Positions 10,469-31,145 of a stretch of DNA of 64,000 nt are shown one piece after another. Within the stretch, counting starts at the first letter, position 1. Each line of letters starts with the position of its first letter. Origin of the DNA: Escherichia coli (lineage in GTDB: Bacteria; Pseudomonadota; Gammaproteobacteria; Enterobacterales; Enterobacteriaceae); the NCBI RefSeq assembly GCF_036507355.1, contig NZ_AP027877.1; one strand, written 5' to 3'. The position numbers and the translations under genes are program-made. The notes below the pieces were generated by a model. It was not told the DNA's origin. It did not search any database and saw nothing but the letters and a program-made list of their open reading frames with translations.

Positions 10469-10830
10469 GTAAATCCTCGGGGTAGATCGCAGCGAAAGAG
10501 CAACCATGCCTTATCGCAAATTCAGTTTTGGAATGCAGTTCGCAAAATGATACCCGGTACACTTACGATTACAAATGCGCGGTATAAAGAAGTTTGCATT
10601 TGATCGGTGAATAATAGGAAACTCAGTCACTGTTTCGTCTGCAAAATCAGCCATTTCGCCTTCATACGTAGTTCTTCGGTTGAATAGTAAGGTCTATCAT
10701 GCTGCATCGAACGGTGATTTTGATGGATGTTGGAAGTGAGTAGCTGTACGTAATTTTTGATTAAAAGTAATCAAAATGTTGCCAATGGTTATGCTATCGT
10801 GTGTTTTTTGAATATATAACAGGTAAAACT

Positions 10831-11721
10831 ATGTCCTGGCTTAATTCTGTCTTATTGGCGCTTACCTCGGTGCAACCTTATATGGTACCGGCAACCGTTA
10901 TCGGCCTCGTCAGTTTTGCATTCCTCTGTTTTATTTTCTTTTATTTTTTTAGAGCAGTTAAAATTATTAACGGCCTGAAAAAATATACTCAGTCAATTAA
11001 TGGCATCGAAAATAATGAGCCTGGTAATCAGCTTCAGCATCTGCAAAGTTTGTTTGTACAGCCTGAGTTAAAGCACGCCTGGAATGAATTCGAAGAATCG
11101 TTGCACTCACAATATGAACTGGAGGACGGGGAAGAGAAAATCGTCCGTATTAGGGCTACTGCACCGAGCGCCAGTTTCTTCTCGGAGCAACAACTGGTCG
11201 ATATTCCGCTGAACACCGAATTTTTCAAACACCTGCCCGGTATTCTGACCGGTGTGGGGATTATCGGTACCTTCTACGGTCTGATGATTGGTCTCAACCA
11301 CTTCGACCCCAGCACACCAGAGCAGGTCTCCAGCAGCGTCAATAATCTGCTTCGCGATGTGCTGTACGCCTTCCTCGGTTCAGCATTTGCGATTACGTTC
11401 TCTATCCTTATCACCTGGCTGGAGAAATTCTGTCTGGCGAAATGCTACAAATATCTGGAAAAATTCACCGCAGCTCTCGACGCCCTCTATGACAGCGGTG
11501 TTGGCGAGGAGTACCTTGCCTCACTGGTAAAATCCAGTAATGAAAGCGCGACCCAGGCACGCCATCTGAAAGAGAGCCTGGTTACCGATTTACGCGATAT
11601 GCTGCTGCATCTGGCCAACAGCCAGAAAGTGGAAAACGAGCGGCTAGCGACCACCCTCAGCACCACCTATCGCGAAACAGGACAACAGTTTGCCGAGCAA
11701 GTCAGCGGTGCGATTGAAAAC
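10831..11721 (+). pseudogene. MotA/ExbB/TolQ-type proton-channel protein (ZorA-like N-terminal ~297 aa), truncated by IS629
   Basis: It has N-terminal TM helices, then LPGILTGVGIIGTFYGLMIGL and LYAFLGSAFAITFSILITW (MotA/ExbB-like TM pair), then the beginning of a long helical tail. The reading frame runs into the first bases (TGA) of IS629 at 11722. The start is ATG 10831 or the upstream GTG 10801. Confidence 0.6.
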
Positions 11722-11775
11722 TGAACCGCCCCGGGAATCCTGGAGACTAAACTTCCTGAGAAAGAGGTAAACAGG

Positions 11776-12102
11776 ATGACTAAAAATACTCGTTTTTCCC
11801 CCGAAGTCCGTCAACGGGCAGTCCGTATGGTTCTGGAAAGTCAGAGCGAATATGACTCACAATGGGCGACAATTTGTTCCATTGCTCCAAAGATTGGCTG
11901 TACGCCGGAGACTCTGCGTGTCTGGGTTCGCCAGCATGAGCGGGATACCGGGGGCGGTGATGGAGGGCTCACCACCGCTGAACGTCAGCGTCTGAAAGAG
12001 CTGGAACGTGAAAATCGTGAACTGCGCCGCAGTAACGATATCCTTCGCCAGGCTTCCGCTTATTTTGCGAAGGCGGAGTTCGACCGCCTCTGGAAAAAAT
12101 GA
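11776..12102 (+). CDS. IS629 OrfA (108 aa)
   Basis: The translation matches IS629/IS1203 OrfA from memory. It has an HTH and a leucine zipper, and ends in the A-rich slippery region (ggaaaaaatga). Confidence 0.9.
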
Positions 12103-12989
12103 TGCCACTGCTGGATAAGCTGCGTGAGCAGTACGGGGTCGGACCGCTATGCAGCGAACTGCATATTGCCCCGTCAACGTATTACCACTGTCAGCAACAG
12201 CGACATCATCCGGATAAACGCAGTGCCCGTGCGCAGCGCGATGACTGGCTGAAGAAAGAGATACAGCGCGTATACGATGAAAATCACAAGGTATACGGTG
12301 TGCGTAAAGTCTGGCGTCAGTTGTTACGGGAAGGTATCAGAGTGGCCAGATGCACTGTGGCACGTCTCATGGCGGTTATGGGACTTGCCGGTGTTCTCCG
12401 GGGTAAAAAGGTCCGTACGACCATCAGCCGGAAAGCCGTTGCCGCAGGCGACCGCGTAAACCGTCAGTTCGTGGCAGAACGACCTGACCAGCTGTGGGTG
12501 GCTGATTTTACTTACGCCAGCACATGGCGGGGCTTCGTCTATGTGGCGTTCATCATTGATGTGTTTGCCGGATACATCGTGGGGTGGCGGGTCTCATCGT
12601 CCATGGAAACGACATTCGTGCTGGATGCACTGGAGCAGGCGTTATGGGCCCGTCGACCGTCCGGCACGGTCCATCACAGTGATAAAGGTTCTCAGTATGT
12701 ATCGCTGGCCTACACACAGCGGCTTAAGGAAGCCGGATTACTGGCATCAACAGGAAGTACAGGCGACTCGTATGACAACGCGATGGCGGAGAGCATCAAT
12801 GGTCTTTACAAAGCGGAGGTAATACACCGTAAGAGCTGGAAAAACCGTGCAGAAGTGGAACTGGCCACACTCACGTGGGTGGACTGGTATAACAATCGAC
12901 GATTGCTGGAAAGGCTGGGCCATACTCCTCCGGCAGAAGCAGAAAAAGCTTATTATGCTTCCATCGGAAACGATGATCTGGCAGCCTGA
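12099..12989 (+). CDS. IS629 OrfB (DDE transposase catalytic part, 296 aa)
   Basis: DDE/rve-type motifs are present: WVADFTY..., [17 protein letters not shown]. Confidence 0.9.
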
Positions 12990-13153: not shown

Positions 13154-13999
13154 ATGTTACGTGGTTCAGAAAGAAAAGAAGCATTAGCCAGTCTCAAAAG
13201 TGCAACTAACCGTTATGAAGTACAGGCTAAAGACACCCAGGATGAGATCACTGCCCTCTTTCTGTTACGCCAGAAATGCAGTAAGGACCTGATTGCCCGT
13301 GGTGAAAATTTTGTTAATCGACTGGCGAATACACCGAAAGAGTTTGATAAATCCTGGAGCGAATTGAAAGCGGAAATCGCTGAATTTGATAACGTGGTGG
13401 AAAAACTGGAAGAAGAATACCGCGCATCACATATTGGTAAAGGAACGGCTGCTGCGGGGGTTGCCGTTGGGGCGGGGGTCGCCGCATTTGCCCCTACGGC
13501 TGCGCTGGCGGTCGCAACAACTTTTGGTACAGCATCCACGGGTACCGCTATTGCTACGTTAAGCGGAGCTGCCGCAACAAATGCAGCCCTGGCATGGCTC
13601 GGCGGCGGCGCACTGGCTGCGGGTGGCGGTGGCATGTCAGCAGGAAGCGCACTACTGGCTCTGGCGGGTCCAATAGGCTGGGGGATTGGTGCTGTAGGCA
13701 TCGCTGGCGGAACCTTACTAGCCCGTCGCAAAAACGGTAAAATCATTGATGAAGCACAACAGGAAGAGCGCCAGGTTCGCGCAAAAACCAGCGAACTTCG
13801 CGTGATGGAACGTGGTGCGCAAGAACTCAAGATGCTCACATCCGAGCACTATCATGGTACTGAAAGCATTATTGATGTGCTGGAAAAGGCTGCGCCTCAA
13901 GACTATTGCCAGTTTAATACCCATCAGAAAGATCAATTAGGGGCATTGATTAACCATATCAATGCATTATCAAAACTGATCAACAAGAAAATCCAGTAA
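13154..13999 (+). CDS. 281-aa coiled-coil protein with a central Gly/Ala-rich hydrophobic (glycine-zipper-like) region. Function unknown.
   Basis: AGGAG lies 7 nt upstream of the ATG. The N- and C-terminal thirds are charged and helical. The centre, GKGTAAAGVAVGAGVAAFAPTAALAVATTFG...LAGPIGWGIGAVGIAGGTLLARRK (~95 aa), is hydrophobic. Its stop overlaps the next start (TAATG). Confidence 0.75.
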   Translation: MLRGSERKEALASLKSATNRYEVQAKDTQDEITALFLLRQKCSKDLIARGENFVNRLANTPKEFDKSWSELKAEIAEFDNVVEKLEEEYRASHIGKGTAAAGVAVGAGVAAFAPTAALAVATTFGTASTGTAIATLSGAAATNAALAWLGGGALAAGGGGMSAGSALLALAGPIGWGIGAVGIAGGTLLARRKNGKIIDEAQQEERQVRAKTSELRVMERGAQELKMLTSEHYHGTESIIDVLEKAAPQDYCQFNTHQKDQLGALINHINALSKLINKKIQ

Positions 14000-15444
14000 T
14001 GAGCATTAACCATAATACAGTTGGCGACCAGCTTATCGGCAGCGCGGTTAACGCCATTAATCAGACCCGCATTGATAATGAACTGTTAAAACTATCGCAG
14101 CAGGATCGTGCATTTGAGTTGGCTGGCGAACAAATGCAAAAGGTGCGTGATTTCATCGCGTCACCGGGTAACATCCTGGGCTCAATGAGCACCAAACACG
14201 GTGAAATTGCTGAGCAGGTAGAAGTTGGCGTGCGCAATGCTCGCCAGGCAATAGAAGAAAGGGTTCAGGATGCCTCTGATCTTAGCGCCACGTTTGACGG
14301 AGTGGGTCGAACCGCTCCGGCGGATTATATGATAGATGGCGTTGACGTGCAGTCAAAGTTTATCAACGGAGTTAATAATAACCTGAACCATGTCCTTCAG
14401 CACATGGAAACCTATCCCAATTTCACCCGGGGAGAATCCTTTTACCATATCCCCAAAGACTCCTGGCAAACGATTCAGGATGTTATTGATGGGAAGCCGG
14501 TGGAGGGCTTGAGCGAAAAAACAATACAGGCTATCAGGGATAAAGTTGCAGAAATTGAAAGTACAACGGGAAGATCCTTTAATGATGTCGTGCGTCCTGG
14601 AGTTTCTGATTACAAAGATGTTCAGTGGGGAAAAATTGACGAAACTCTTGATAAACATGATCAGGAATTAGCGGAACAGAACGAGGCAAAAAAAGCAGAA
14701 ATTATTGACGATCACCAACCCTCCCTAAGTGAAGGCATGCGTGCAACCGCAATGGGAGCCGCTTTCGGTGGAACCTTTGCTCTTGTAACAGGTATATATA
14801 GCAAATACCGTGACGGTAAAAATATATTTCGTGGAGATTTCAACAGACAGGACTGGCAGGATGTCGGCTTAGATACATTGAAAGGTGCCGCTATTGGCGG
14901 TGTATCCGCCGGAGCAATTTATACCCTGACCAATTATGCCTCTCTGGGAGCACCGTTCGCCAGCGCGCTGGTCACTGCCGCTAAAGGTGTAAGCAATCTT
15001 GCTCTCTCCTATCAGCGCGGTGAGATTAATGCTGATGAATTTACCGATCTTGGCCTTATCATCTGCGCGGAATCGGCCATCGTTGGCGCAATGTCTGTCG
15101 CAGGTCAGGCAATCATCCCTGTGCCTGTTTTGGGGGCATTGGTTGGTTCTATCTCAGGGAAGTTTATGGTTACCGTAGCTAAAAATCTGGACAGTAAAGC
15201 ACGCCAATTGCTGGCGAAAAAAATGGAGCAATTTACATGTCGCTTAAGTGAGATTGAGCAGAAAGCACTCAACCGAATTTTGAACGAGTTCGCGGCGCTG
15301 GGTGAGCTTACCGCAGCTGCATTTAGCGTGGAAAACAATCGCCGGTTGCTGGAAGCAAGCATCACGCTTGCCCAAGCCCACGGTGTTGAAGAGGCGAAGA
15401 TAATCAAAAATGCGGATGATCTTGACACATTTATGATGGCGTAG
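13999..15444 (+). CDS. 481-aa protein with an N-terminal soluble domain (HG-x2-AE ... AD-x3-DG-x-DVQSKF) followed by a Gly-rich multi-helix membrane region. Function unknown.
   Basis: It is translationally coupled to the upstream gene. Hydrophobic Gly/Ala-rich segments span residues ~245-400. The soluble domain is paralogous to residues ~405-460 of the next protein. Confidence 0.75.
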   Translation: MSINHNTVGDQLIGSAVNAINQTRIDNELLKLSQQDRAFELAGEQMQKVRDFIASPGNILGSMSTKHGEIAEQVEVGVRNARQAIEERVQDASDLSATFDGVGRTAPADYMIDGVDVQSKFINGVNNNLNHVLQHMETYPNFTRGESFYHIPKDSWQTIQDVIDGKPVEGLSEKTIQAIRDKVAEIESTTGRSFNDVVRPGVSDYKDVQWGKIDETLDKHDQELAEQNEAKKAEIIDDHQPSLSEGMRATAMGAAFGGTFALVTGIYSKYRDGKNIFRGDFNRQDWQDVGLDTLKGAAIGGVSAGAIYTLTNYASLGAPFASALVTAAKGVSNLALSYQRGEINADEFTDLGLIICAESAIVGAMSVAGQAIIPVPVLGALVGSISGKFMVTVAKNLDSKARQLLAKKMEQFTCRLSEIEQKALNRILNEFAALGELTAAAFSVENNRRLLEASITLAQAHGVEEAKIIKNADDLDTFMMA

Positions 15445-15480: not shown

Positions 15481-18003
15481 ATGCTACAGATAATTGGTGC
15501 GTTAATTTTACTGGTAATCGGTTTTGTTATTATAAAAGCGTTGTTTAAGGCATCTCTCAATATTCTAGGTGTGATATTAGGATTGGGTGCATTGATTGTT
15601 GCAGGCCCACCTTTATTGGCGGGCTATATTGTAGAGCGCGTAACCTATGCGCTTCACTCACGTTGGCTGCTGGGTGTACCTCTTGCCATAGCAGGAATGG
15701 TGATTAGCTTTATGTGGGGACTTGATGGTAAACATATTGCCTACGAAGCCTATTCATTTGATTCAATGAAGTTTATTTTAACCGCTGCATTTGCCAGTGG
15801 CCTGCTTGCAGTACCTGTACAAACCAAGGCTATTCTACAAAACGGGCTTATACCAGCCGATATCAATGCCAAACTTAAAGAGTATTATTGCTGTTTTTAT
15901 ACGTCTTACTTTTTGATGGCCTGCTCTGCGGCTACACCGTTTATAGCCTGGCAATATAATATCTCATCTTCACTGATGTGGTGGACAGGATTGCTATACT
16001 GGATAGCAGCCTTACTGACACAGTTCTATGCGGCAAACCAAATTCAGGAACTCAAGAAGTTAACTAATGCCATCAATACAGGGTTAAATGAGCAAAAAGC
16101 GATCAATAACCAACTTTGGCTGACGGAACTAAAAGAAGGAAGTAACCTCTCAGCAGAATTCGTAGAGACTATCTATCTTAAGTTGGTCTCACAGCATATT
16201 TTTCAGGGCGATACTCGAGAGCAGGATCTGGCTGGTGAAAACTGGCTTTTAAATGATGCCTGGTATGAAAGAAAGATGGCTGAATTTAATGAGCAGTTAA
16301 ACAGTAAAATTGTACACTCATCAGATGAGCTAAGAAGCCTTTTTGGTAATAGGCTGAATTTACCCTCTGCTGCGAATGATGATCTCCTGAACCGTTATCT
16401 TGATGGTGGGAACTATTATTCTTTTTCGGATGGTCGAAAATTTGTCTCGTTTCACTATGTCGACGAGCTTTGTACCTGCACTTCATGCGGTTTGAGCGAG
16501 ATTAAAAACGCAAAACACCAGGACGGTTGTGGGAGCCAGGAATGGTATTGCTCTGATATTTGCCGGGAAACGGAAAAACTCTGCATTGAAATTCACAAGC
16601 GACCACAGGCTGAATTTATTTCCAGTGCAGCAACAAACGGTCTGATTCTCATGACGCTCCCGGAGGCCTGGAATACTAACGAAAAAATGTTTGCAGTGGG
16701 AGGACAAGGACATGGTTTTGCAGCCGAACGGGGAAATCATCTTACTGACAAAATCCAACTAAAAGATGCACATATTCTCGGTGATGATAATGCGAAAAAT
16801 GGTGCAGACAGGCTGGTTAACGGTTCAGAGATTCAGACCAAATACTGTGCAACCGCTGCACGTAGCGTCGGTGCTGGTTTTGACGGACAAAACGGTAATT
16901 ATCGCTATTATGACAGTAACGGAACCCCAATGCAGTTAGAGGTTCCGAAAGACCAGTATTCGAAAGCGCTTGAAACGATGGAGAACAAAATTCGCGATGG
17001 CAAAGTCCCCGGCGTTACCGATCCTGCAGAAGCCACAAAACTTGTACGTCAGGGACACCTGACTTATAGCCAGGCACAAAACATTACTAAGTTTGGCACG
17101 TTCGAATCTATCACTTACGACATTGCGGAAGGATCTATCATCAGCCTCGCAGCTGGAGGTATCAGCTTCGGTCTGACAGCTTCTATTTTCTACCTCAATA
17201 CCGGCGATCGTAAGGCTGCGTTGCAAACGGCAGCAATACAGGCAGGTAAAACATTTACCCGCACACTGACAGTTTATGTGACGGTACAGCAATTACACCG
17301 TATCAGTGCCGTTCAGGGGTTACTTAAAAATATTGATTTTGCCGCTGCCAGCCCGACAGTTCGTAATGCGCTTCAACAGGGAGTCGGAGCTAACAATCTC
17401 AACTCCCTTAACAAGATGATGCGTGGCACACTGGTTACCTCTTTCGCACTGGTCGCCGTGACCACTGGTCCGGATATGATCAAAATGGTGCGAGGTCGTA
17501 TTTCTGGGGCACAGTTTATAAAAAATCTGGCAGTTACTTCATCTGGTGTGGCTGGGGGGGCAATTGGTTCTATTGCTGGCGGAATGATGCTTAGTCCATT
17601 AGGTCCTTTCGGTGCTTTAGCAGGACGCGCAGCTGGTGGCTTGTTAGGCGGTATGATTGCCACAGCGATTTCCAAAAAAATAGCGGGTGCACTGGTTGAA
17701 GACGACCGAGTAAAAGTGCTGGCTCTCATCCAGGAACAGGTTACATGGCTTGCAACAAGTTTCATGCTTACAGCACACGAACTTGAAAACCTGAACGCGA
17801 ATCTGGCAACAGTAATTGACCAAAAAACCCTGGAGGTTATCTTCGCCGCAAAAGAGCAAGACCGAGCAACGGCCAATATGCTGATTAAACCACTTGTAGT
17901 AAGTGTGGTTAAGCAACGACCGGTCCTGAGCTATGAACAATCGCAAATCTGCGAAATGGTCGATCAGCTTGATACATCGGTTTCATTATCTGCTGTTGCA
18001 TAA
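15481..18003 (+). CDS. 840-aa polytopic membrane protein. It has ~6 N-terminal TM helices, a Cys-rich (MYND/zinc-ribbon-like) segment, an HGFAAE...ADRLVNGSEIQTKY domain and a C-terminal Gly-rich membrane region. Function unknown.
   Basis: AAGGA lies ~10 nt upstream of the ATG. TM-like stretches span residues 1-185. The Cys cluster is CTCTSCG-x14-C-x6-YCSDIC-x6-C at residues 331-368. Unverified recollection: the N-terminus resembles YeeR-type inner-membrane proteins of E. coli CP4-44-like islands. Confidence 0.75.
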   Translation: MLQIIGALILLVIGFVIIKALFKASLNILGVILGLGALIVAGPPLLAGYIVERVTYALHSRWLLGVPLAIAGMVISFMWGLDGKHIAYEAYSFDSMKFILTAAFASGLLAVPVQTKAILQNGLIPADINAKLKEYYCCFYTSYFLMACSAATPFIAWQYNISSSLMWWTGLLYWIAALLTQFYAANQIQELKKLTNAINTGLNEQKAINNQLWLTELKEGSNLSAEFVETIYLKLVSQHIFQGDTREQDLAGENWLLNDAWYERKMAEFNEQLNSKIVHSSDELRSLFGNRLNLPSAANDDLLNRYLDGGNYYSFSDGRKFVSFHYVDELCTCTSCGLSEIKNAKHQDGCGSQEWYCSDICRETEKLCIEIHKRPQAEFISSAATNGLILMTLPEAWNTNEKMFAVGGQGHGFAAERGNHLTDKIQLKDAHILGDDNAKNGADRLVNGSEIQTKYCATAARSVGAGFDGQNGNYRYYDSNGTPMQLEVPKDQYSKALETMENKIRDGKVPGVTDPAEATKLVRQGHLTYSQAQNITKFGTFESITYDIAEGSIISLAAGGISFGLTASIFYLNTGDRKAALQTAAIQAGKTFTRTLTVYVTVQQLHRISAVQGLLKNIDFAAASPTVRNALQQGVGANNLNSLNKMMRGTLVTSFALVAVTTGPDMIKMVRGRISGAQFIKNLAVTSSGVAGGAIGSIAGGMMLSPLGPFGALAGRAAGGLLGGMIATAISKKIAGALVEDDRVKVLALIQEQVTWLATSFMLTAHELENLNANLATVIDQKTLEVIFAAKEQDRATANMLIKPLVVSVVKQRPVLSYEQSQICEMVDQLDTSVSLSAVA

Positions 18004-18192: not shown

Positions 18193-18618
18193 TTATTTCA
18201 GTCGTTTACCTGCATCATCAACGACTTTCTCGCCGTCTTCCTTAGCAAATGCGCCTTTTTGCGCATCCGGAAGAATATCCAGTACCACTTCGGAAGGACG
18301 GCACAGACGCGTTCCCAATGGTGTCGCCACAATCGGGCGATTAATCAGGATCGGATACTGAAGCATAAAATCGACTAACTGATCGTCAGTAAACTTATCT
18401 TCCGCAAGCCCCAGTTCTTCATAAGGTTCAACATTTTTACGCAATAGTGCCCGTACCGTTATCCCCATATCTGCGATGAGTTTGAGCACCTCATCGCGTG
18501 AAGGTGGATTTTCAAGGTAAAGAATAACGTTCGGTTCAGTACCGCTGTTGCGGATCATCTCCAGCGTATTACGCGACGTGCCGCAGGCTGGGTTGTGATA
18601 AATAGTGATGTTGCTCAT
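18193..18618 (-). CDS. arsC: Arsenate reductase (glutaredoxin-type), 141 aa
   Basis: The translation MSNITIYHNPACGTSRNTLEMIRNSG...RLCRPSEVVLDILP matches E. coli ArsC from memory, including catalytic Cys12. Confidence 0.95.
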   Translation of the reverse strand: MSNITIYHNPACGTSRNTLEMIRNSGTEPNVILYLENPPSRDEVLKLIADMGITVRALLRKNVEPYEELGLAEDKFTDDQLVDFMLQYPILINRPIVATPLGTRLCRPSEVVLDILPDAQKGAFAKEDGEKVVDDAGKRLK

Positions 18619-18630
18619 ATCAATATCTCA

Positions 18631-18840
18631 TTACAAAGTGAAAGAGAGACGTAGCGCCAGCGCGGCCAGCGTTACAAACAGCACAGGCAGAGTCATGATG
18701 ATCCCGGTGCGGAAATAGTATCCCCAGGTGATGGTCATGCTCTTCTGTGAAAAGACATGCAGCCAGAGTAGCGTTGCCAGGCTACCAATAGGTGTAATTT
18801 TCGGCCCCAGATCGCAGCCAATCACGTTGGCATAAATCAT
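18631..18840 (-). pseudogene. arsB: 3'-terminal fragment (last ~69 codons) of the arsenite efflux pump gene arsB
   Basis: The translation ...[22 protein letters not shown]...[20 protein letters not shown] is the ArsB C-terminus (intact ArsB is ~429 aa). No arsB sequence or arsR lies further upstream (right of ~18841). Confidence 0.85.
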
Positions 18841-19072
18841 CGCCTCTTTGATAACGCATCATACTGCCAGCGGAATAACTCTCTTCGTCAATACGGCTCT
18901 CGCTGTACGCTTACCCATCTAGAGAGGTTTCAGGTGATTATCGATGTCAGAAGACTGAATGATTCAGTCGTTTACTTTGAGATAGATCAGAGGTTTTTCA
19001 CTACCTGTGTTCATCACATGGCTACGAATAGTAGAATCCAAGCATAAATTAACGCTTAGAAAAGTTGAGCTC

Positions 19073-22000
19073 ATGAGATTCCACCCTGAAGGGCCTTCCA
19101 TACCCGATATCCTCTTAGAACGCTGTGATACAGGTCGAGTTGTATTTCTCTGTGGCGCTGGGGTTTCATTACCTTCAGGGATGCCAAGCTTTGTAGAGCT
19201 TACCCAGCATGTAATTGAATACTTTGACCCACCACACGATTCAGAAATCATGGCAGCATTTCGCCCATGGCTTCACGACCAATCTTCAGCTAATGTCCCT
19301 CTCGACCAAATTTTCAACCTCCTACATCTGGAATATGGCAAGGATGAGGTGAATGCTTTGGTATCAAAGCGTCTGGGGACTGCAAGAACTGATATAGAGA
19401 TTGGACGTGAGCATGCCCTGATTAAAAGAATTTCCTCAAATCAGAGTGGTGTCCCACAGATTGTCACAACGAACTTTGACCGACTGTTCGAGGATAACCA
19501 AGCGCAAGATAATCTAACTCGATATGTGCCGCCAGCTTTCCCAAATCTGAATTTCGGTTCGACAATTGAGGGAATAACATATCTTCACGGCCGCCTGGTC
19601 GACGAAAATGCTGTAAACCATCCTTATGTGCTGAGCAGTGCAGACTTTGGAAGAGCATATCTTTCAGAAGGATGGGCGACCAATTTTATTAAGCTTCTTC
19701 TGGAACGATACATCGTTGTTTTGGTCGGTTATCAGGCAGAAGACCCACCAGTTAAATACCTCCTTCAGGGTCTCAATCATGATGGCCAGTATGATCGTTC
19801 CAGACTTTATGCATTTGATCGCGGCCTTGCCGAGGATATCGAAGCCAAATGGCGTGACAGAGGAGTTACAGCCATAGCCTATTCCGATCATCCAGCTCTT
19901 TGGAAGACTTTGGAAGCATGGGCTGAGCGAGTAGATGATCCACGTCGATGGCGAGCTTCTATTATCGCTAAAAGCCAGCAAGATCCGAAAGTTCTAGCAC
20001 CGTATGAACGTGGTCAACTTGCCCATATACTTCGCACTACACAAGGTGCGAAATTGTTCTCTGAAGCTGTTCCTCTTCCCCATCCAGAGTGGCTTTGTGT
20101 GATGGATGCAAATATTCGGTCAGCCAAACAGAAGAAAAGATACTACGAACTTGATGACAATGATGCAGAGACCTTCGATCCACAAGAAGCTTATGGGCTT
20201 GATGACGATCTGCAAGATATCGCTGATGATGAACGTAAACGTGGAGTGAGTAACGATAATCTCCTTGAATAGCGCGACGAAGATGATAACCCGTCAGATT
20301 ACCATCGCTTGGCTGGATGTTTGGAGACAATGCCGAAACGATTGAGCCATCTCATGGTCTGGTTCTGCAAATCTCTTGATAGCCCCGTGATGGCTTGGTG
20401 GGCTATCCGAAAAATCAGTATTCATCCTCTACTACTACAAAATATTGAACGCAATATTGAGCATTCAACATCAATCCACAAACGCGCTCGTCAACTGTGG
20501 GGCTTAATTCTTGAACATCATAAAGATCCCCGCAATCGTCGTTATGACGTCGATTGGTACGACTTAAAAGCTCGAATTACAAAACAAGGCTGGACAGCTG
20601 GTGTCTTACGAGAATTTCGTAGGGTAATGACACCCCGATTGGAAAAGAAGTTGCCGTATGGATTGGGTGAAGTCAGACCGCCAAGCGGCTCCTGGGAGGA
20701 AATTCAGTTCAGCGAATTTGGCCAATTTGAAGTTGTGTTCACCGAAAGACATGATGACGATTTAGACGTACCTGACAATGTATTACTACAAGTATTTAAT
20801 GCCTTAGAAGCGCAAATAATAATTGCCTCCGGAATGTTAGAGGATATTGATACGCACTACTTTCCAAGCCCAAGTTGTTATCCAGAACGTGCGGTTGAAG
20901 GAGAAGAACATTTCGCGAAAGGTGCGGAGGTATTAACTTGGTTTGTCCAACTTTTAGACCGAGTTGTTATGAAGTGGCCAGAATTGGCTAAGGCATAAGT
21001 AACAACTTGGCCAGTTAAGGAGCCATTTTTCTTCCGAAAGCTTAGACTTTATGCATTCAGTAAAAAAGGCGTCTTTGAGGCTGACCGTGTTGCCGAAGAG
21101 CTTTTGTCTTTGGATCAAAGTGGATTTTGGGACACAAATATTACCCGCGAACTTCTTTTTCTGCTCACTGATCGTTGGGAAGAATTCTCGCAAGAAAATC
21201 AGAATCGAATTATAGAGCATATATTAACCGGCCCGAACCATTTACTTTATTTGTCTGAGGAAGACATTCCAAAAGAAAGAGAGATATTAGCAGCTAGATA
21301 CGCTCGTTATCTCGAACTAAACGGCTGTAAAGTAACCACTATTCATCGTGACCAACTAACTGCGATGATTAAAAGAATTCCTGACTGGAATGATGGCTGG
21401 GCTACATCTGTTGTCATCAATTGGGGTTCACGGACAGGTTGGGTTCGTACAGACGAAAAGCCAGATATAATCTTAGATCTTCCAGCAAACGAAATAATCC
21501 CAAAAGTAAAAGAGATACTTAAACGAGAGGATGATAGCTTTACTAGTAGGCAACCCTTTGTCGGATTGATAAAAGAAAATCCGCGTAAAGCTTTGTCTGC
21601 ACTCGCTATTGCAGGGAGAGGCGGTGATTACCCTAAGGAATTTTGGTCGCCAATGATAAGTGAGTTACCTATAGATCTTAAACCAAGGGTGAGACGAGTA
21701 TTCCTGAACCGAATTGTGCGATTGCCAGTTACAGCTTTGGTCGAGTTACGACATACATTAAGTAACTGGCTTGAACAAAATTTAGCTGCGACTCTTGAAT
21801 TTGATGAGGATCTCGGGTGGGCAGTTTACGATCATGTCATAGCAGGCATACTGAGTGGTGGCGCCAGTGCAATACGGAGTAGTTTCGGAGAAGTTATCCG
21901 GAATGGAGAAGTTGTAATACAGTCTCGCCGCACGTTCAGTCATGCAATCAATGGTCCTGTCGGTAAATGTACTCAAGCGCTTTTTCAAGCAATGCCAAGT

Positions 22001-22882
22001 GAAGAGAAAAAAGCTGGTTCGCTTATTCCTTACTCTATTAAGTCTCGTATTGAACATCTTTTTACTGCACCAGGAGAAGGAGCGGACCACGCTATAGCTA
22101 TAACGTCTCGCAATCTAAATTGGCTAATGTTTGTTGATCCTGCATGGGTAAAGGAATGGCTTATACCCCTTTTGGATTTAAAACATCCTGCAGCAGAACC
22201 AGCATGGAATGGTTATCTTCAGTGCAATGCTATGCCTTCAATTGCAGTAGCTGAACTTATTAAACCAGCTTTTCTTAACCTTATCCCTTGGATCGAATCT
22301 CTTTCTTGGGAAAAAGATTATTCAGTTCGAGCTTCGCAATGGCTTGGCTTAATGAGAATGTTTCACCCTGATGAGCCCTCCAGTCCTTCCAGGAATGAAA
22401 TGCGCTCCATATTACGAGCATTATCTGACGAGGCTCGAAATCGTTTTATTTCCTGGTTAGGATTGGTCGGGCAGAAAAACGAGAGTGGCTGGGTTAAGTA
22501 TGTGATCCCATTAATCAGAGAGGACTGGCCCAAAGAACGCCAATATAGAACCACGAGCTCTGTAAAAGCATGGATTGGTTTACTTGACGATACTGGCGAT
22601 AAGTTTCCGGAGGTTTACGATTCAGTAAAAACATACTTAGTACCAATCGAGACAATTGATCATTTGTTCTACAGATTCACTCGGGAGCTCGGTGGTAAAG
22701 GAGCAATTGCGGCTATTTTTCCAGAAACCACGCTTGATTTAATGGACAAAATAACACCACTGATATTCACGCGTACATCAGGAGAGCTGCAGAAGATTCT
22801 TGAGCTAATTGAAGATACAGATACAAGTCTGATCAAGGATTCTCGGTACTTACGGCTTATTGCACTGGTTGAGAAAAATTAG
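19073..22882 (+). pseudogene. ~1270-codon SIR2-domain (DSR-like defence-associated sirtuin) ORF interrupted by two in-frame stop codons (TAG 20270-20272, TAA 20996-20998)
   Basis: Track ORFs 19007-20272, 20309-20998 and 21104-22882 are all in the same frame, and the frame stays open between them. The N-terminal SIR2-type motifs are VFLCGAGVSLPSGMPSF, QIVTTNFDRLFE, YLHGRL and VLVGYQAEDPPV. The rest is a long helical region. Confidence 0.75.
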
Positions 22883-23040
22883 CATTTATGGTTTTTTACC
22901 GTTGTTGATTACTCAGCAACACTTTTCGACATGCCGTAGCGCTTATCGCCTGTTCTTGACTAAGATGAGAAGCAGGCGTTAAAGTTTGGTTAAAGGAGAA
23001 CCTCTAACCATTCCTTCTGGAAGAAATAATCTTTGGAGTA

Positions 23041-23763
23041 TTATTGAAATTGCTCAAATATACCATGCAACCCAATAAATTTTATTTTTAGTGCAGGATC
23101 ATGCCTTAGAACAGTCTCAAGTGAGTTCCGCTCATAAATTATTGATTGTGCTTGTATTGAGCCGTTCCATGAAGGCAAAAGCAGTAAAGCAGATGTTTCC
23201 AAATCAATACCCCACCAATCGTTAACATAGCAATTTAAAAAATCAACAAGAGCCTTAATCGCAATAAAAGCATCTTTTTCGGTATATGTTTCAGGATCGA
23301 GGGATATACCTGATATATTACTTTTAGCTTGCTCGGAATTAATATTAGACTGGTGTTGATAAGCAATTTTTCCTTCACCCGGTTTAGTTTCTATTGTATC
23401 AGTGAAAATTTTAATCTTAGGATGCACCAATGCATTTCGTTGTGCTATTAATTCTTTTATTATTTGTGTTTGAGTGGTTCCACGAGGTAAAGACATGTCT
23501 TTATGCCATTGAAGAGTATAGTCAAATTTATCAAGTGAAGAGAACCTGTCAATTTGATCTTTTAACTTTTGCGTTATTTCTATAGAAGATAAAAATGAGT
23601 TAGCTGCAGCCTCAATAGCGTAGTTAATTGAAAGTACACTTGATTTGGCAAGTGTTTTTTTGATGTGTGATTTTTTTGTTGCAGCTGATAATTCATAAAG
23701 AGTTATTGCATCAGAAAAAAGCTCAAAAAAGCTGTTCTTGGTTATTTCAACTTTTCTTTTCAC
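23041..23763 (-). CDS. ~240-aa protein with a HEPN-type RNxxxH motif (putative RNase effector)
   Basis: The motif ELIAQRNALVHPK (R-N-x3-H) lies in a helical N-terminal half. The probable start is GTG 23763 (GAGGG 6 nt upstream); the track start is TTG 23769. It is the last gene of an AT-rich minus-strand operon. Confidence 0.6.
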   Translation of the reverse strand: MKRKVEITKNSFFELFSDAITLYELSAATKKSHIKKTLAKSSVLSINYAIEAAANSFLSSIEITQKLKDQIDRFSSLDKFDYTLQWHKDMSLPRGTTQTQIIKELIAQRNALVHPKIKIFTDTIETKPGEGKIAYQHQSNINSEQAKSNISGISLDPETYTEKDAFIAIKALVDFLNCYVNDWWGIDLETSALLLLPSWNGSIQAQSIIYERNSLETVLRHDPALKIKFIGLHGIFEQFQ

Positions 23764-23852
23764 ACGCAACCCTCTGCATAAAAAATAAAATCATATAGAC
23801 AGAATACAATTTCCTATAATCTTTACATTCTACTAATTGTGGATATAAATGG

Positions 23853-25325
23853 CTATCGAGAATAAGAACTGGGTTTAGGAAAACCACCTCTGACGACGAC
23901 AACAACAATTGCAACTTGAGATTGACCTGTTGGATGAGTGAATACTTCAATATCATCCTCTATTACTCCCACCGGCGCTGATTTTGACGTTGATTCCAGA
24001 ACAACCAAAATACCGATACGCTTACCTAATCCAATGGCATAAGCTGCTGTTTGATCGAAATATTTTTGAAAATCCTTGGGAAAAAGAACCTTATTATTTT
24101 CAACTTTTAGTTCTATCGGAATGTCTTCAAATGTGAGATCCGTTATCCCGCCAGCAGCCTCTGGATGGCCTTGTAATTTCTCGCCAATCTCATTCCTACT
24201 TCTAAGCATTTCGGCTATTTTACGCTGAAATTTTTGCTCTGATGTGCCAGCAATAAATAAACTAGCTTTAAGAGCTTGTGCTGCAACATTTCCTAAGCCG
24301 CCAAGTATAACCATTGTATTAGCAATGTCATCTGAGTGTAATCCAGGGAAAGCTCGTAATATGTTACGAATTTTTATAAGATGCCTATCGACGTTTGAAA
24401 ATCCAGTTAATGGAGCTTGAGCGGAATCACTCCCTTCAAGTAGTAAGCGCCTATGTCCTACGATAGCAATATTTTGGCAATTACTTAAATTGTCAAACTC
24501 GGCAGCATATAGGAATTCGTAAGGTCTCGAGCCAAATGAATTTGCCACTTCCAAGACGACACGACCGATCCCCTTCAGTGTGAAGGGGCCTTCCCCCTCT
24601 GGTTTCTCAAATCTAAAATCAGGCAACCAGTCTCGCTCACGAGCATCAATTGTCACTGGCTTTAATGAGAGGAAATTTGCACTTTTTGGCCAATTTGAAA
24701 CCCTGACCTCTATGTTAAGGTCATAAGCCGTACCCGGCTTAAGATAATTCCATTGCTGAGCTGGTTCCCCATCAATATCAAACTTTAGAAATGCAACTGT
24801 CGATTCTTGTGTTTTATTCTCTTTTGTCTCTTTACTAGATATTCCTTGCCTAATCTCCTCAATATTTTTATCGCGAAGATTTGCGAATAAGAGTAGTGGC
24901 AATGACCAGCTTGTTAACTGGTCTTGTATTTGTTTTAATGAATCTAATTTACTGATTGAACGGACTTGCTCTATAAATTCATTAAATTGTTTGTTCTCCG
25001 AGAGACTCGTCGTCATGTCGATCTCTGATGCTTTTAATTGTGCTGAATTTAAAAACCTTTGAGCATCAGTCTCAGCATTACGTATAGCATGTTTCCACTC
25101 AGCTAGAGTTACAAATATAGTCATTGCTATATAATATGCACGATATTGATCTTCAACATATCCCTGACCGAGCTCATCGAGCGTTTCATTGAGCTTTTGA
25201 CACGCTTCTTTAAGTTTCACCAAGTCATTCGGAATGGACTTGAGTGCACCATCCAACGCTGCTGCAATCTCAACCCTCGGAGAAAAAGCTTGGCGGAAAA
25301 TCTCGAAATTTGGCTCGTTCTTCAT
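23853..25325 (-). CDS. ~490-aa protein with a C-terminal PD-(D/E)xK nuclease-like domain carrying a RecB/Cas4-type QxxxY motif
   Basis: The start ATG 25325 is preceded by GGAG at 7 nt. The C-terminus reads GGITDLTFEDIPIELKV...YFDQTAAYAIGL (D ... ExK ... QxxxY). It has a helical N-terminus and a beta-rich middle. Confidence 0.65.
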   Translation of the reverse strand: MKNEPNFEIFRQAFSPRVEIAAALDGALKSIPNDLVKLKEACQKLNETLDELGQGYVEDQYRAYYIAMTIFVTLAEWKHAIRNAETDAQRFLNSAQLKASEIDMTTSLSENKQFNEFIEQVRSISKLDSLKQIQDQLTSWSLPLLLFANLRDKNIEEIRQGISSKETKENKTQESTVAFLKFDIDGEPAQQWNYLKPGTAYDLNIEVRVSNWPKSANFLSLKPVTIDARERDWLPDFRFEKPEGEGPFTLKGIGRVVLEVANSFGSRPYEFLYAAEFDNLSNCQNIAIVGHRRLLLEGSDSAQAPLTGFSNVDRHLIKIRNILRAFPGLHSDDIANTMVILGGLGNVAAQALKASLFIAGTSEQKFQRKIAEMLRSRNEIGEKLQGHPEAAGGITDLTFEDIPIELKVENNKVLFPKDFQKYFDQTAAYAIGLGKRIGILVVLESTSKSAPVGVIEDDIEVFTHPTGQSQVAIVVVVVRGGFPKPSSYSR

Positions 25326-27843
25326 ATTCTTTCTCCAACTCAGCCGTAAGACCATTCCATTTTTCAATTAAGTCATTATAGGGTTCGCAAACACTTATGG
25401 CATGTTCAATGCTAGCTGCTTCTGTAACTAAAGCAGCCTTAAGTTTCCATTGTGTATTTCTTTCATCATTTGGAATTTCTTCCAGTAGTTCCTTTAAACA
25501 AACATTTGCAGTTACGTTATCACCACACTTGCTTAACGCAGCCACGTACACTAATGCTTCAATAAATTGTTGAGGTTTAAATGGTTTCAGAGCATTGAAT
25601 GCTTTTTGGAGATCGTCTTTACAATTTCGAAGCTCATTATGTGGCGCTCTTAATATCACTGAGATGCAGTCATCAATAGAAATACTGCGAGTATACTCAT
25701 CCTGAATTGCTTTGAGTGCGACTTTGACAAAACCGGGAATATCATCAAAATGAAAACGCAATCGATTGATAGCATCATAAAGTGCACTTCCTTCTAAAAT
25801 TAATAATATATTAGAAAGAAGCAATCCAATTTTCCCCTTTCTCTCTTCATCTGATAAGCAAAGAGAAGAAAAAACGTCAATGCATTCTACAATGAAATTA
25901 TCTTTTTTATCTTGTTGAATATAATAGCAAATTAGATTCCATAGCCGGGATCTCACAAGTCCCCGTTTCTCCTCAGGAAAAGATCTACGGCTCAAAGCGC
26001 GAACAGCATACTGATGCACCATAACATATTGATCTAATAGCAAGACTGAATATGCTTCGAAGAATAAATCTGGGAAATTCTTCACTAAATCATAGGGAAC
26101 ATTTTCCCACGCTTGTACGGCACGTGCTCGAATCAATGTACTCTCATCCATAAGAGCACGATACCAATCGGAGAGCACTAGTGTTAGGCTGTCAATACCA
26201 GTTAATAACTTAGAAACATGGGCAATCATGTTCCCACGCATTTGAGTTTGTTCTTCTGGTAAGCTTCTATAGAGATGAAGAAAATCATCGATTCCTTCAC
26301 TCCCTCTAGATTTAGCTCCAATCGCAGCCCATTCAATCAATGCACCCTGTAAGCCATCAATAGCATTACGCTTATTACTTTTATCTAAATGATCTAGAAA
26401 ACTCTCATTTATTTCTATGATTTTTTCTTTATTCAACGCCTCAAATTTCTCGCTTAGCGTTGCAGCCGCTCCGATCAAATCGTCAAAATTATCAACTGCA
26501 AGCTCAGCAAATTCGTCCCAAGAGTGTCTAAAGAATTGTCCTGCATCATCCATGCTATCCTCTGGATTTTCCACAGCAGCCCAGAGCAAACGCCTAAAAG
26601 CTATTTTTTGTGTCTTTCCTGTTTTACTTTTTTTTCTATAGTTATTTCGCAGTACAGATCTGTAAGCTCTATTGGCCTCATGTCTCCCAATATCATCTTT
26701 GTCAGCAAGATAGGATTGAATAACTTTATCGCTTTCATCGGGAAATCTATCTAAGTATTTCGTAGCAGCCTCCCGAAGAAAGAAAAGAATGCTGCTATCT
26801 CTCCGCTCCTCCGGGAGTAGAGTCCGTCGACGCATCAGCTTAGCAAATATACTTCTAATATGTCTTAGAAGCAGCTCATCATCATCCGATGCAATAATTA
26901 TCTCAATAGCAAATTGAAATTTTCCCCGGTGAGTATCTTTTATGTATTCATCAACAACATCACAGATATCAGCTTGTCTTTTTTTAAAAAGTGACTGAAT
27001 GGGGCCTTTATTAAGTACTTTTCGCTCAAATGTGCCAATCATCATTCCAGGAGGAGATTCAACAGCCATTCTAACAAAGTGGTAAAGGACTTTTAAGAAA
27101 TCATCTTCAGATAGATTCTCTGCTTCCAAGAGGATTGCTTCTATAGCTGGTGGACAATATTCGAAGTTGTTTATTAAATATACTGAAATTGCCAGTTTTT
27201 CCGCTTGTGATAATTCAGTTCTTATTAAAGCTTTTGCTGCTGGCATTGAATATGGTAATTTCTCATGTAACACTGCAGGCAACAAGTGTTCAATTATTTT
27301 ACTTGTAAATGTCTCAGGTGCCAGATTAGCAAGTTGTTCCAAACGGGGATCGTTGTTCTCTATATCCTCTTGATCGAGTTCATCAAGCAAATCAAGCACA
27401 AACGTTTCTTCTAGAGTAAGTGAAAGACGTAATACTGCTCGTTCTTGTTGTCTATTGAGCTGCTTCTGCTTTCTCTGCCTTTCTTCTTCTTTGCGAGCCA
27501 AATTTCGTTCTTCGGCAGATTTTTCTCTTGGGCCTACAAACTCTAAAATATTGGGAAATCCCACCGGAACCCGTTGATTACAATGTTTACAGTTCTGTTT
27601 ATAGAAGCTGTAAACCGAGTCTTCCAGCAGCCAGCTAAGCATTGAACTTTGCTTAACAAATTTGCATTGAACTCCCATGTGACCAATGGGTAACCCTGTT
27701 TCAGCCTCAATCATGCCTCTCCCCTCTGATCGAATGAATTCAGAGTGAGAACACCAGTTACTAAGTAGGTGTACAGCACGGAGATTTCGTTGACCAGCTT
27801 CGATTGCCTCTTCAAATCTTTTTTTATCTTCAAAATCATCCAT
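25270..27843 (-). CDS. 857-aa all-helical (HEAT/ARM-like) protein with an N-terminal Cys/His cluster. Function unknown.
   Basis: The ATG is preceded by AAGGGTG at 8 nt. The N-terminal cluster is CSH...H-x4-C...CKHC (residues 31-88), followed by a K/R/E-rich coiled coil and ~700 aa of helical repeats. I found no P-loop, DEAD or other catalytic motif. Confidence 0.7.
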   Translation of the reverse strand: MDDFEDKKRFEEAIEAGQRNLRAVHLLSNWCSHSEFIRSEGRGMIEAETGLPIGHMGVQCKFVKQSSMLSWLLEDSVYSFYKQNCKHCNQRVPVGFPNILEFVGPREKSAEERNLARKEEERQRKQKQLNRQQERAVLRLSLTLEETFVLDLLDELDQEDIENNDPRLEQLANLAPETFTSKIIEHLLPAVLHEKLPYSMPAAKALIRTELSQAEKLAISVYLINNFEYCPPAIEAILLEAENLSEDDFLKVLYHFVRMAVESPPGMMIGTFERKVLNKGPIQSLFKKRQADICDVVDEYIKDTHRGKFQFAIEIIIASDDDELLLRHIRSIFAKLMRRRTLLPEERRDSSILFFLREAATKYLDRFPDESDKVIQSYLADKDDIGRHEANRAYRSVLRNNYRKKSKTGKTQKIAFRRLLWAAVENPEDSMDDAGQFFRHSWDEFAELAVDNFDDLIGAAATLSEKFEALNKEKIIEINESFLDHLDKSNKRNAIDGLQGALIEWAAIGAKSRGSEGIDDFLHLYRSLPEEQTQMRGNMIAHVSKLLTGIDSLTLVLSDWYRALMDESTLIRARAVQAWENVPYDLVKNFPDLFFEAYSVLLLDQYVMVHQYAVRALSRRSFPEEKRGLVRSRLWNLICYYIQQDKKDNFIVECIDVFSSLCLSDEERKGKIGLLLSNILLILEGSALYDAINRLRFHFDDIPGFVKVALKAIQDEYTRSISIDDCISVILRAPHNELRNCKDDLQKAFNALKPFKPQQFIEALVYVAALSKCGDNVTANVCLKELLEEIPNDERNTQWKLKAALVTEAASIEHAISVCEPYNDLIEKWNGLTAELEKEYEERAKFRDFPPSFFSEG

Positions 27844-27898
27844 TTAGATAACACCCTTATAAGGAACATGTACTCATCTAAAATGCTGTTACCGGATT

Positions 27899-27927
27899 AT
27901 TATACCTAAAACAATGAATGCTGTGTA
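27899..27927 (-). promoter_or_regulatory. Putative sigma70 promoter of the three-gene operon
   Basis: On the minus strand it reads TACACA (-35, 4/6) - 17 nt - TATAAT (perfect -10), ~50 nt upstream of ATG 27843. Confidence 0.35.
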
Positions 27928-28246
27928 TTATGAAATGTGATATAAGTCAATTAGTTACATATAAAAACCAACTCACATCCAAAAGGATAGTATTTCGAGG
28001 TTTGTAGCATCATTAAATGTGAACTTATTTATCGCCCCCTCAAGTTAACTAATAAATAAGTTATAATTTACATATACTTCTGGAATTTAGAAACCTTATA
28101 TCTAATAGTTGAGTAAGTTAATAATCAACTTGAGTGTGATTCATAAAAAAAATAATTATTATTTTCAGCCCCTCCATTATGGAGGAGCAATAATAGTATA
28201 GTTTTCCTGTATTCCTAACGATCCAGTTAGGCTTAGAGAAATCTAA

Positions 28247-29443
28247 TTATGAAGCACTCCTGAGAGCAACCCTTCCAACTTTATCAATATAATCCGCATA
28301 CCACTGCATCATCTCTCTCCTGCCTTCCAAATACAGCGCATGGTTGTACGTCCCGCGAATCGCATTCTTATCGACATGCGCAAGCTGGGTTTCAATCCAT
28401 GCGGTATTGAACCCTTCCTCATGCAAAATCGTACTCATCGTGTGGCGGAAACCATGCCCCGTTACCTTCCCCGTGTACCCAATCCGCTTAAACACCTGAT
28501 TAATACTCGCTTCGCTCATTGTTTTGCGGGGATCATTCCTCCCAGGAAACACCAGAGGATATTGCCCAGACATCACTTTGAGCTGCTGTACGATCTCCAG
28601 CGCTTGGGTAGAGAGGGGCACCAGGTGAGGCCGTTTCATCTTCATGCGCTCTGCAGGTATTTCCCACACCGCTTTTTCAAGATCAAACTCACTCCAGAAA
28701 GCACCTCGAAGCTCACCGGTGCGAACCCCCGTAAGGATCAGCAAACGTGCGGCAAGAACAACCAGCGGGCTGCCTGTATAGCCAGAAAGAGCTTTAAAGA
28801 AATCTGGTAACTCCTCAACGGTAAGGAAGGGATAATGCTTCGATTCATGCCCTGACATCGCGCTGGTTAGATCCGCAGCCGGATTGTATTCCGCACGACC
28901 GGTAACTATGGCGTAGCGAAAGACTTCGCTGCAGCGCTGGCGAACTTTCTTGGCCTTCTCTGTCGCACCACGGCTTTCCATTCGACGCAGTACATTCAAC
29001 AGAACAAGAGGCTTAATTTCATTGACTGGCTGCTGACCGATATAGGGAAAAATATCTTTATTTAAAGCTTCGATAATGTCCGATGCATACCCTTCTGACC
29101 ATCTGCTCACCTTCGTACCGTGCCACTCAAGCGCCACAGACTGGAACGTATTATTGAGCTGCACATCACGAACCAGCTTTTCTTCTTTCTTGGCAAACGA
29201 TGGATCGATACCCTCGGCCAGCTTTTTCTTGGCTTCATCGCGTAGTGCCCTCGCTTGAGCAAGGGACACTGCCGGATAAACGCCAAAAGCCATACGCTTC
29301 TCTTTTCCATTGAAGCGATATTTCATTCGCCAGTATCGAGAACCAGAGGGAACGACTTCAAGATACAAACCAGCACCATCTGCCAGCTTATAGGCTTTCT
29401 CTCTGGGTTTAGCTGCATCTACCTGTCGCGCATTTAGCTTCAT
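28247..29443 (-). CDS. P4-type tyrosine integrase (398 aa)
   Basis: The start MKLNARQVDAAKPREKAYKLADGAGLYLEVVPSGSRYWRMKYRF is a typical P4-integrase N-terminus. The catalytic residues are LTGVRTGELR, HGFRHT and LAH...GTY. Confidence 0.9.
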   Translation of the reverse strand: MKLNARQVDAAKPREKAYKLADGAGLYLEVVPSGSRYWRMKYRFNGKEKRMAFGVYPAVSLAQARALRDEAKKKLAEGIDPSFAKKEEKLVRDVQLNNTFQSVALEWHGTKVSRWSEGYASDIIEALNKDIFPYIGQQPVNEIKPLVLLNVLRRMESRGATEKAKKVRQRCSEVFRYAIVTGRAEYNPAADLTSAMSGHESKHYPFLTVEELPDFFKALSGYTGSPLVVLAARLLILTGVRTGELRGAFWSEFDLEKAVWEIPAERMKMKRPHLVPLSTQALEIVQQLKVMSGQYPLVFPGRNDPRKTMSEASINQVFKRIGYTGKVTGHGFRHTMSTILHEEGFNTAWIETQLAHVDKNAIRGTYNHALYLEGRREMMQWYADYIDKVGRVALRSAS

Positions 29444-29606
29444 TGGGGGCATCTCCCTGGACCGAACACAGAATGCCCCCACTTATGCCCCCAACTGTAA
29501 CTTGATTCCGGTTGAGTCCAGTTGATAACAGGAGATAAAATACGGGCTAGAAACCGCAGTATACGGGCTTTTAGTTGATTTCGGTAGACTTGGGAAGAGT
29601 TTGAAA

Positions 29607-29655
29607 TGGTGCCGATAATAGGAGTCGAACCTACGACCTTCGCATTACGAATGCG
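29607..29655 (-). tRNA. Truncated tRNA-Thr(CGU) (thrW-type): 3' 49 nt only (anticodon loop to CCA end). Not a functional tRNA; probably an att-site remnant.
   Basis: The minus strand reads CGCATTCGTAATGCGAAGGTCGTAGGTTCGACTCCTATTATCGGCACCA, identical to the 3' part of E. coli thrW as I remember it. Upstream of it, the sequence (…ctcattttcgaactggct) is unrelated to the tRNA's 5' half. Confidence 0.8.
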
Positions 29656-31127: not shown

Positions 31128-31145
31128 TGAATCGCCACGGATAAT

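Follow-up and report, generated by a model that had tools for sequence, protein, structure and literature searches.

The closest described counterparts of the gene considered here are the single-protein SIR2 defence systems DSR1 and DSR2. In DSR1 the N-terminal SIR2 domain is activated once the C-terminal domain detects phage, and the DSR1 that was tested, assayed in Bacillus subtilis, gave protection without growth arrest and with only transient loss of nicotinamide adenine dinucleotide (NAD+), and is reported as non-abortive (Gao et al. 2020; Garb et al. 2022, bioRxiv 10.1101/2021.12.14.472415). In DSR2 a phage tail tube protein is bound by the solenoid, and the NAD+ pocket of the SIR2 tetramer is widened allosterically as a result (PMC11850899, PMC10973363). 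Little homology is reported between the DSR1 and DSR2 C-termini, and the trigger of a DSR1-type protein therefore need not be the tail tube protein; our literature search found no report of a DSR1 structure or trigger. Here we analyze a DSR1-family gene in a 64,000-nucleotide stretch of Escherichia coli DNA (contig NZ_AP027877.1; hereafter the window). The gene spans positions 19073-22882 on the plus strand and is very probably a pseudogene that arose by two successive nonsense substitutions and has lost its phage-triggered function.

Translation of the plus-strand frame from 19007 to its natural stop at 22880-22882 encounters only two stops on the way, TAG (20270-20272) and TAA (20996-20998). 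The three open reading frames (ORFs) in the mechanical list for this region (19007-20272, 20309-20998 and 21104-22882) all lie in that frame, as a preliminary description of the locus had held, and from ATG 19073 to the stop at 22882 there is one frame of 1,269 codons plus the stop, broken only by the TAG and the TAA. A random frame is expected to present a stop about every 21 codons, and some 1,270 open codons with two interruptions are far beyond chance. The homologues are 1,265-1,272 residues long and begin MRFHP, which identifies ATG 19073 as the true start and backs the choice made in the preliminary description; GTG 19007, the start in some annotations, would add 22 residues without homologue support. 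RefSeq start calls differ for identical DNA, with the equivalent of GTG 19007 used in strains PSJ-29 and ET826 and the equivalent of 19250 in Z226-5/6 and EC2641; the latter start would remove the GAGVS motif.

The N-terminal SIR2 domain, predicted to be an NADase (residues ~1-345, 19073-20107), matches Pfam SIR2_2 (E 3e-14) and retains all three of the motifs previously pointed out, GAGVS (codons 28-32, nucleotides 19154-19168), TTNFD (Asn134, 19472-19474) and LHG (His172, 19586-19588). GAGVS, Asn134 and His172 are invariant in 68 of 68 homologues, and the SIR2 catalytic and NAD-binding residues are still intact in the window DNA. An acidic linker follows (residues 346-419, 20108-20329), which is probably flexible and contains a conserved NLLxWRDEDDxP motif as well as the first nonsense codon. 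The region between the two stops (codons 401-641, 20273-20995) is an open frame that is mostly helical in a structural model, and the remainder (codons 643-1269, 20999-22882) is modeled as an all-alpha solenoid and is presumed to be the phage-sensing domain.

Profile comparisons place the ancestral protein in the DSR1 family. The N-terminal fragment matches positions 1-354 of 1,275 of a PADLOC Dsr1 profile (E 1e-44) and the C-terminal fragment, collinear with it, matches positions 640-1242 of 1,248 (E 1e-47); the middle fragment (codons 401-641) has no Pfam or PADLOC match of its own. The intact allele found in other strains matches the PADLOC Dsr1 profiles PDLC04167 (E 8e-86) and PDLC02183 (E 3e-79). 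The earlier reading of the locus as a single-gene SIR2 defence system of DSR1/DSR2 type thus stands, and the collinear profiles make it specifically DSR1-like. Against the NCBIfam Dsr1 equivalog NF041818 the match is also collinear (positions 449-1261 of 1,263) and scores 379 bits, far below the 1,400-bit cut-off, so we do not file the gene as a Dsr1 equivalog; from its sequence it appears to belong to a distant clade of the DSR1 family and not to be an equivalog of the tested DSR1.

A protein search returned 2,781 homologues, those listed being typically 1,265-1,272 residues long with 100% coverage, from Salmonella, Citrobacter, Serratia, Yersinia, Pseudomonas and many other Proteobacteria, and beginning at the equivalent of ATG 19073. 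Among 80 species-representative loci, 67 contain one uninterrupted ORF of about 3.8 kilobases (kb), the rest being cut by contig ends or carrying sporadic lesions. The flanking genes are unrelated across E. coli, P. aeruginosa and Microbulbifer; the P. aeruginosa copy shares an integrase island with an adjacent Gabija-like OLD/UvrD pair, and the Microbulbifer copy adjoins guaA. Because the neighbors in Pseudomonas and Microbulbifer are unrelated, the DSR1-like gene is a standalone system with no conserved partner gene. In E. coli it is rare, being present in only six of 5,426 complete genomes by megablast. The allele of E. coli PSJ-29, 99.9% identical in DNA, is intact and annotated as one coding sequence (CDS) of 3,876 nucleotides, and the copies in Z226-5 and Z226-6 are uninterrupted and identical in DNA apart from 3-4 single-nucleotide polymorphisms (SNPs). 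Alignment to intact homologues, the check that the preliminary description proposed, confirms a single ORF and recovers TGG and TAC as the ancestral codons. The exact 1,269-residue PSJ-29 protein (P0121) has a MULTISPECIES Citrobacter record too, and copies 96% identical occur in Salmonella; the Citrobacter and Salmonella copies indicate that the gene or the island has probably moved between genera in recent times.

The origin of each stop can be traced base by base by comparing the window with ET826, ET881, PSJ-29, Z226-5/6, EC2641 and ten fetched Logan/ENA contigs. The first, TAG, derives from TGG (Trp400) by G>A at 20271, where the window has A and ET826, PSJ-29, Z226-5/6, EC2641 and all ten contigs have G. 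The second, TAA, derives from TAC (Tyr642) by C>A at 20998, where the window, ET826, ET881 and the ten contigs have A, and PSJ-29, Z226-5/6 and EC2641 have C; in E. hormaechei codon 642 is CAC. We refer to these alleles as W400* and Y642*. Both are single-base substitutions relative to near-identical copies, in keeping with the earlier observation that no frameshift or deletion is involved. The two positions differ in conservation: across the 68 homologues (36-90% identity) position 400 is Trp in 65, with D404 in 67 and P407 in 62, and position 642 is variable (His in 51, Tyr in 9).

The order of the two changes is legible in related contigs. In contig L010 the TAA stands on a haplotype that is ancestral elsewhere, with A at 22711 and C at 24856, so that Y642* is earlier than W400*. 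Contig L017 is intermediate, and the changes therefore followed one another as Y642*, 22711 A>G, 24856 C>T and finally W400*. The exact 641-residue Y642* product is indexed in 25 collection blocks (24 contigs read) from ERR, SRR and DRR runs, and a 663-residue annotation variant of it is found in 10 further contigs; carriers differ at about 9 variable sites in 11 kb. Y642* is thus an established, older allele that predates at least two further substitutions. W400* is private to the window strain, its 399-residue product being WP_338387635.1 on a 4.64-megabase E. coli contig. The same protein sequence occurs in the Logan assembly of SRR26926489, in which a contig is 100% identical to window positions 18802-29633 (10,832 nucleotides), TAG and TAA included; this run may be the same isolate. 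The description of the inactivation as recent therefore holds for W400* and not for Y642*, which is older and found in runs from several archives. One further carrier, DRR827115 (Logan contig L015), has TGA instead of TAA at codon 642 through A>G at 20997. This second hit in one codon, in a lineage with so few variable sites, may stem from an erroneous read or from chance, or may mark a change to a leakier stop codon.

The consequence for the product depends on whether translation can restart. After the TAG, the first in-frame start candidates lack a Shine-Dalgarno (SD) sequence. After the TAA there is no ATG within 100 codons, and the only candidates are TTG 21104 and TTG 21110 (codons 678 and 680), the second with a weak SD-like GAAGAG 9 nucleotides upstream. 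Either TTG start would drop residues 643-679, among them W646, which is invariant, and F654 and Y660, which are highly conserved. Since translation ends at codon 400 and no credible restart follows, loss of phage-triggered defence by this gene is to be expected, and we infer that what remains efficiently translated is a 399-residue SIR2-only fragment without the sensor. A promoter and terminator scan of 18600-23200 gave 5 promoter-like sites compared with 8.9 in shuffles and was uninformative. In RefSeq the fragments are annotated as ordinary CDSs ('SIR2 family protein', 'hypothetical protein') and not as pseudogenes.

Structural predictions are consistent with a DSR-type layout. The C-terminal 627 residues are modeled by AlphaFold with a predicted local distance difference test score (pLDDT) of 84.5 as an almost entirely helical, all-alpha solenoid. 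A Foldseek search with this model returned only generic HEAT/ARM solenoids (E >=2e-3, template modeling score (TM) <=0.34), and no sensor specificity can be derived from so generic a match. The model of residues 1-1030 of an 80%-identical homologue (P0039) is poor (pLDDT 62), with residues 346-419, the linker that holds W400, as low-confidence coil (pLDDT <50). The best PDB matches of this N-terminal and middle model are cryo-electron microscopy structures of B. subtilis DSR2, a weak similarity (E 2e-4, TM 0.12) that we count as a lead only, given the quality of the model; by sequence, the intact protein matched none of the PDB chains. The ancestor was a standalone protein of about 1,269 residues comprising a predicted SIR2 NAD+ glycohydrolase, an acidic linker, a helical middle region and an alpha-solenoid; by analogy with DSR1 and DSR2, the solenoid would sense a phage component and allosterically switch on NAD+ hydrolysis, starving the phage of NAD+. 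Conversion of TAC to TAA at codon 642 first cut away the whole solenoid, in an allele that spread to many isolates, and in the window strain only, conversion of TGG to TAG at the near-invariant Trp400 followed.

Several observations weigh against a gene that is simply dead. The GAAGAG before TTG 21110 means that some C-terminal fragment could be made. Y642* is widespread and otherwise clean in most carriers, and could represent a tolerated split system. The replacement of TAA by TGA in one carrier is not predicted by simple neutral decay, and the NADase and phage-related functions of the clade are extrapolated from a distant relative, as the NF041818 score indicates.

The gene lies within an integrase-bearing defence island that is itself visibly eroding. 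Upstream are a type I restriction-modification system (3070-10507) and a zorA1 stub with an IS3 element (10801-12989), in which approximately the first 297 zorA1 codons are fused to the IS3 left end at a junction near 11721/11722. There follow, on the plus strand, the candidate system PDC-M09, with PDC-M09A (13154-13999, PADLOC E 2e-120) and PDC-M09B (13999-15444, PADLOC E 3e-214), and an 840-residue gene (15481-18003) that is weakly PDC-M09B-like (E 6e-5) and has a precomputed Pfam YeeR_C match; since no island copy has M09A/B without it, this gene may belong to the system as a third component. Between PDC-M09 and the DSR1 pseudogene, on the strand opposite to both, are arsC and a 225-nucleotide arsB remnant (18193-18855), the leftover of an ars operon, which suggests that the defence genes came together through insertions into older cargo. 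Downstream of the pseudogene come a gene of 242 residues and then, on the minus strand, Olokun OloB (23853-25367, PADLOC E 6e-58), OloA (25270-27843, PADLOC E 8e-77) and the tyrosine integrase at the island end (28247-29482; Pfam Arm-DNA-bind_3, Phage_int_M and Phage_integrase). The island is located at tRNA-Thr/proA in PSJ-29, Z226 and EC2641 and beside ycgV/dhaR in the window, ET826 and ET881. At the integrase end of the window, about 49 nucleotides (29607-29655) match the 3′ part of tRNA-Thr, and there is no complete tRNA gene in the window; the ycgV/dhaR location indicates a secondary integration site or a rearrangement.

Comparison with the sister strain ET826 shows how quickly this island changes. 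The two are nearly clonal, differing over about 27 kb by 3 SNPs and one homopolymer indel, and 7,170 base pairs of ET826 that encode the 3′ part of zorA1, zorB1, zorC and zorD are missing from the window, with the junction exactly at the IS3 end. Type I Zorya thus looks to have been destroyed in the window strain by an IS3-adjacent deletion, and with Zorya deleted and DSR1 broken we count two defence systems lost relative to ET826. ET826 in turn has OloA split by ISKpn26 (L001, 20330-21527), EC2641 has PDC-M09A and the integrase interrupted by insertion sequence (IS) elements, and L017 has a 1-nucleotide deletion in the 242-residue gene downstream of DSR1 (equivalent to window 23367). Beyond the island, about 2.5 kb of the window (31124-33617) are absent from ET826 and contain two tandem IS3-family transposase genes, both on the minus strand (31146-31958 and 32397-33215). 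They immediately precede the ycgV autotransporter ORF (33569-35743), which is shortened to 724 residues; ycgV appears interrupted. At position 2453 the window has six A and ET826 five in the A-run of the IS1 programmed-frameshift site; either one of the two assemblies contains a homopolymer sequencing error, or the difference affects IS1 transposase frameshifting.

Other copies of the DSR1-like gene are broken as well. The EC2641 copy has an IS903B insertion near codon 1069, the ET881 copy still has the TAA but lacks its 5′ 1.5 kb, lost at an IS1, and a copy on an E. hormaechei replicon is cut by ISSen4 and interrupted by another IS3-family element. In all, the seven E. coli copies divide into three intact and four broken ones, and the broken ones reflect two primary events (Y642* and the IS903B insertion) and two secondary ones (W400* and the IS1 deletion).

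The most likely cause, we infer, is that selection on a horizontally acquired defence gene was relaxed, or that the gene was costly to keep, within an eroding island, and relaxed selection or general cost-driven erosion is more likely than selected inactivation. The counter-selection of a toxic NADase suggested in the preliminary description is possible but not demonstrated. In its fullest form, it holds that DSR1 was costly or autoimmune, for example because a resident prophage or plasmid protein triggered it, and that a harmful SIR2 remnant drove the second hits. We regard this as a possible but unlikely explanation, though one with observations in its favor. Two of 4-7 substitutions are nonsense as against ~4.4% expected under random mutation (P ~0.01-0.035), an excess that is marginal and post hoc, since the locus was picked for its stops, and that comes from a tiny sample. 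Independent lesions number at least four in the seven E. coli copies and one Enterobacter copy, compared with ~6-12% broken among species representatives; W400* is one of only 3 SNPs in the ~27 kb shared with ET826; and a second hit upstream of codon 642 has occurred in two of the three Y642* lineages with complete genomes, although most Y642* carriers have no second hit. However, W400* leaves the SIR2 domain (1-345) whole, so the putatively toxic NADase is not removed, and the tested DSR1 is neither abortive nor toxic. Erosion is moreover island-wide, reaching OloA in ET826, PDC-M09A and the integrase in EC2641 and Zorya in the window strain. Nonsynonymous and synonymous counts stand at 5:1 in DSR1 and ~10:7 elsewhere in the island, numbers too small to be tested meaningfully.

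A more elaborate version of selection treats the alleles as an adaptive series, in which Y642* would be kept off, leaky or split in a widely distributed lineage, with W400* and the IS1 deletion then selected to silence the SIR2 remnant. The change of TAA to TGA in DRR827115 preserves a stop and in this respect suggests adaptive upkeep; we nevertheless consider the proposal doubtful. If it were true, the island would offer a natural allelic series revealing what a DSR1 NADase costs its host in fitness and by what routes bacteria adjust or discard such an enzyme. Our literature search on defence-gene pseudogenization found nothing specific to DSR1.

It is also improbable, if conceivable, that the Y642* allele is split but functional, with two polypeptides (SIR2 plus the middle region, and a separate solenoid) reassociating, and that W400* alone killed the system. 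Such an arrangement would account for the presence of Y642* in at least 24 contigs and 2 complete genomes, mostly without further lesions, for a stop at a variable position on a domain boundary, for the weak SD-like motif before TTG 21110, and for the persistence of a stop as TGA in one carrier. The carriers are near-identical, however, and the spread can be recent and clonal or reflect hitchhiking with the island. A native split at position 642 is seen in none of the 67 intact species-representative loci and in none of those inspected among the 2,781 homologues. Furthermore, the absence of an ATG within 100 codons of the stop would leave the solenoid dependent on TTG starts that forfeit W646, F654 and Y660.

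There is a very slim chance that one or both stops are sequencing or assembly errors, an option the preliminary description had left standing. W400* is known only from the window genome and one Sequence Read Archive run, maybe of the same isolate. Nonetheless, the TAA is common to ET826, ET881 and at least 24 other contigs in independent assemblies from several archives, both stops recur in the Logan contig of SRR26926489, and both changes are substitutions and not homopolymer indels, all of which makes assembly error very unlikely as their source.

The base after the TAG is C, and TAG followed by C is a comparatively weak termination context. Even so, and although RefSeq lists the fragments as ordinary CDSs, it is scarcely credible that the locus natively comprises three genes, the alternative against which the preliminary description had set its own, or is expressed by programmed read-through or suppression, given that homologues are single ORFs, the fragments lack SD sequences and ATG starts, sense codons are present at both positions in 99.9%-identical copies, no tRNA gene was found in the window, and two successive read-throughs, one at TAA-G, would presumably give negligible full-length product. 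Recoding by selenocysteine or pyrrolysine was considered separately and rejected, since TAG and TAA are the codons concerned, the host is E. coli, and both ancestral sense codons have been seen.

Reading the locus as a decayed DSR1-family gene has modest consequences and leaves the current understanding of SIR2 defence unchanged. Decay of a defence gene by point mutation in a mobile island is an ordinary event, and the clade is new to experiment within a family, DSR1, that is known. In practice, with the fragments entered as ordinary CDSs by defence predictors and RefSeq, the window strain would be wrongly scored as carrying, or partly carrying, DSR1. The near-identical islands provide a ready allelic series (intact, Y642*, Y642* with W400*, the TGA variant and IS-disrupted copies) that would be useful for dissecting the regions of DSR1 and the harm done by sensor-less SIR2 fragments. 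Together with the Zorya deletion, the locus shows fast erosion of a defence island between near-clonal isolates.

Set beside the described systems, the ancestor of the window gene most resembles DSR1, likewise one protein of ~1,250-1,270 residues in which a SIR2 domain at the N-terminus precedes a long non-catalytic C-terminal part, and it shares with DSR1 collinear PADLOC matches at both ends, the standalone state and a defence-island setting. It differs in that the window copy, with nonsense codons at 400 and 642, is not one uninterrupted polypeptide, and in that its clade is Proteobacterial, with an NADase activity and trigger that are predicted by analogy, whereas the characterized DSR1 was assayed in B. 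subtilis. With DSR2 (8XFE, 8WYA, 8WY8, 8WKT) it has in common the layout of SIR2 domain, flexible linker, helical middle and HEAT-like solenoid; its intact protein has no detectable sequence similarity to any PDB chain, and there is no DSR2 model among the PADLOC matches. The gene therefore shares the DSR2 architecture but is not a DSR2 member. Other SIR2-based systems are further removed: Thoeris ThsA, SIR2-HerA, SIR2-pAgo and Avs5 combine SIR2 with partners (SLOG, HerA, Argonaute and a STAND NTPase, respectively) that are absent from the gene and its neighbors, and matches at the level of the SIR2 domain are marginal (ThsA E 1e-3, Aga_SIR2 E 4e-3). As with other eroded defence-island genes, turnover here proceeds by IS elements and point mutation; the window copy stands out only as a tidy case, damaged by two clean nonsense substitutions that comparison with sister genomes puts in order.

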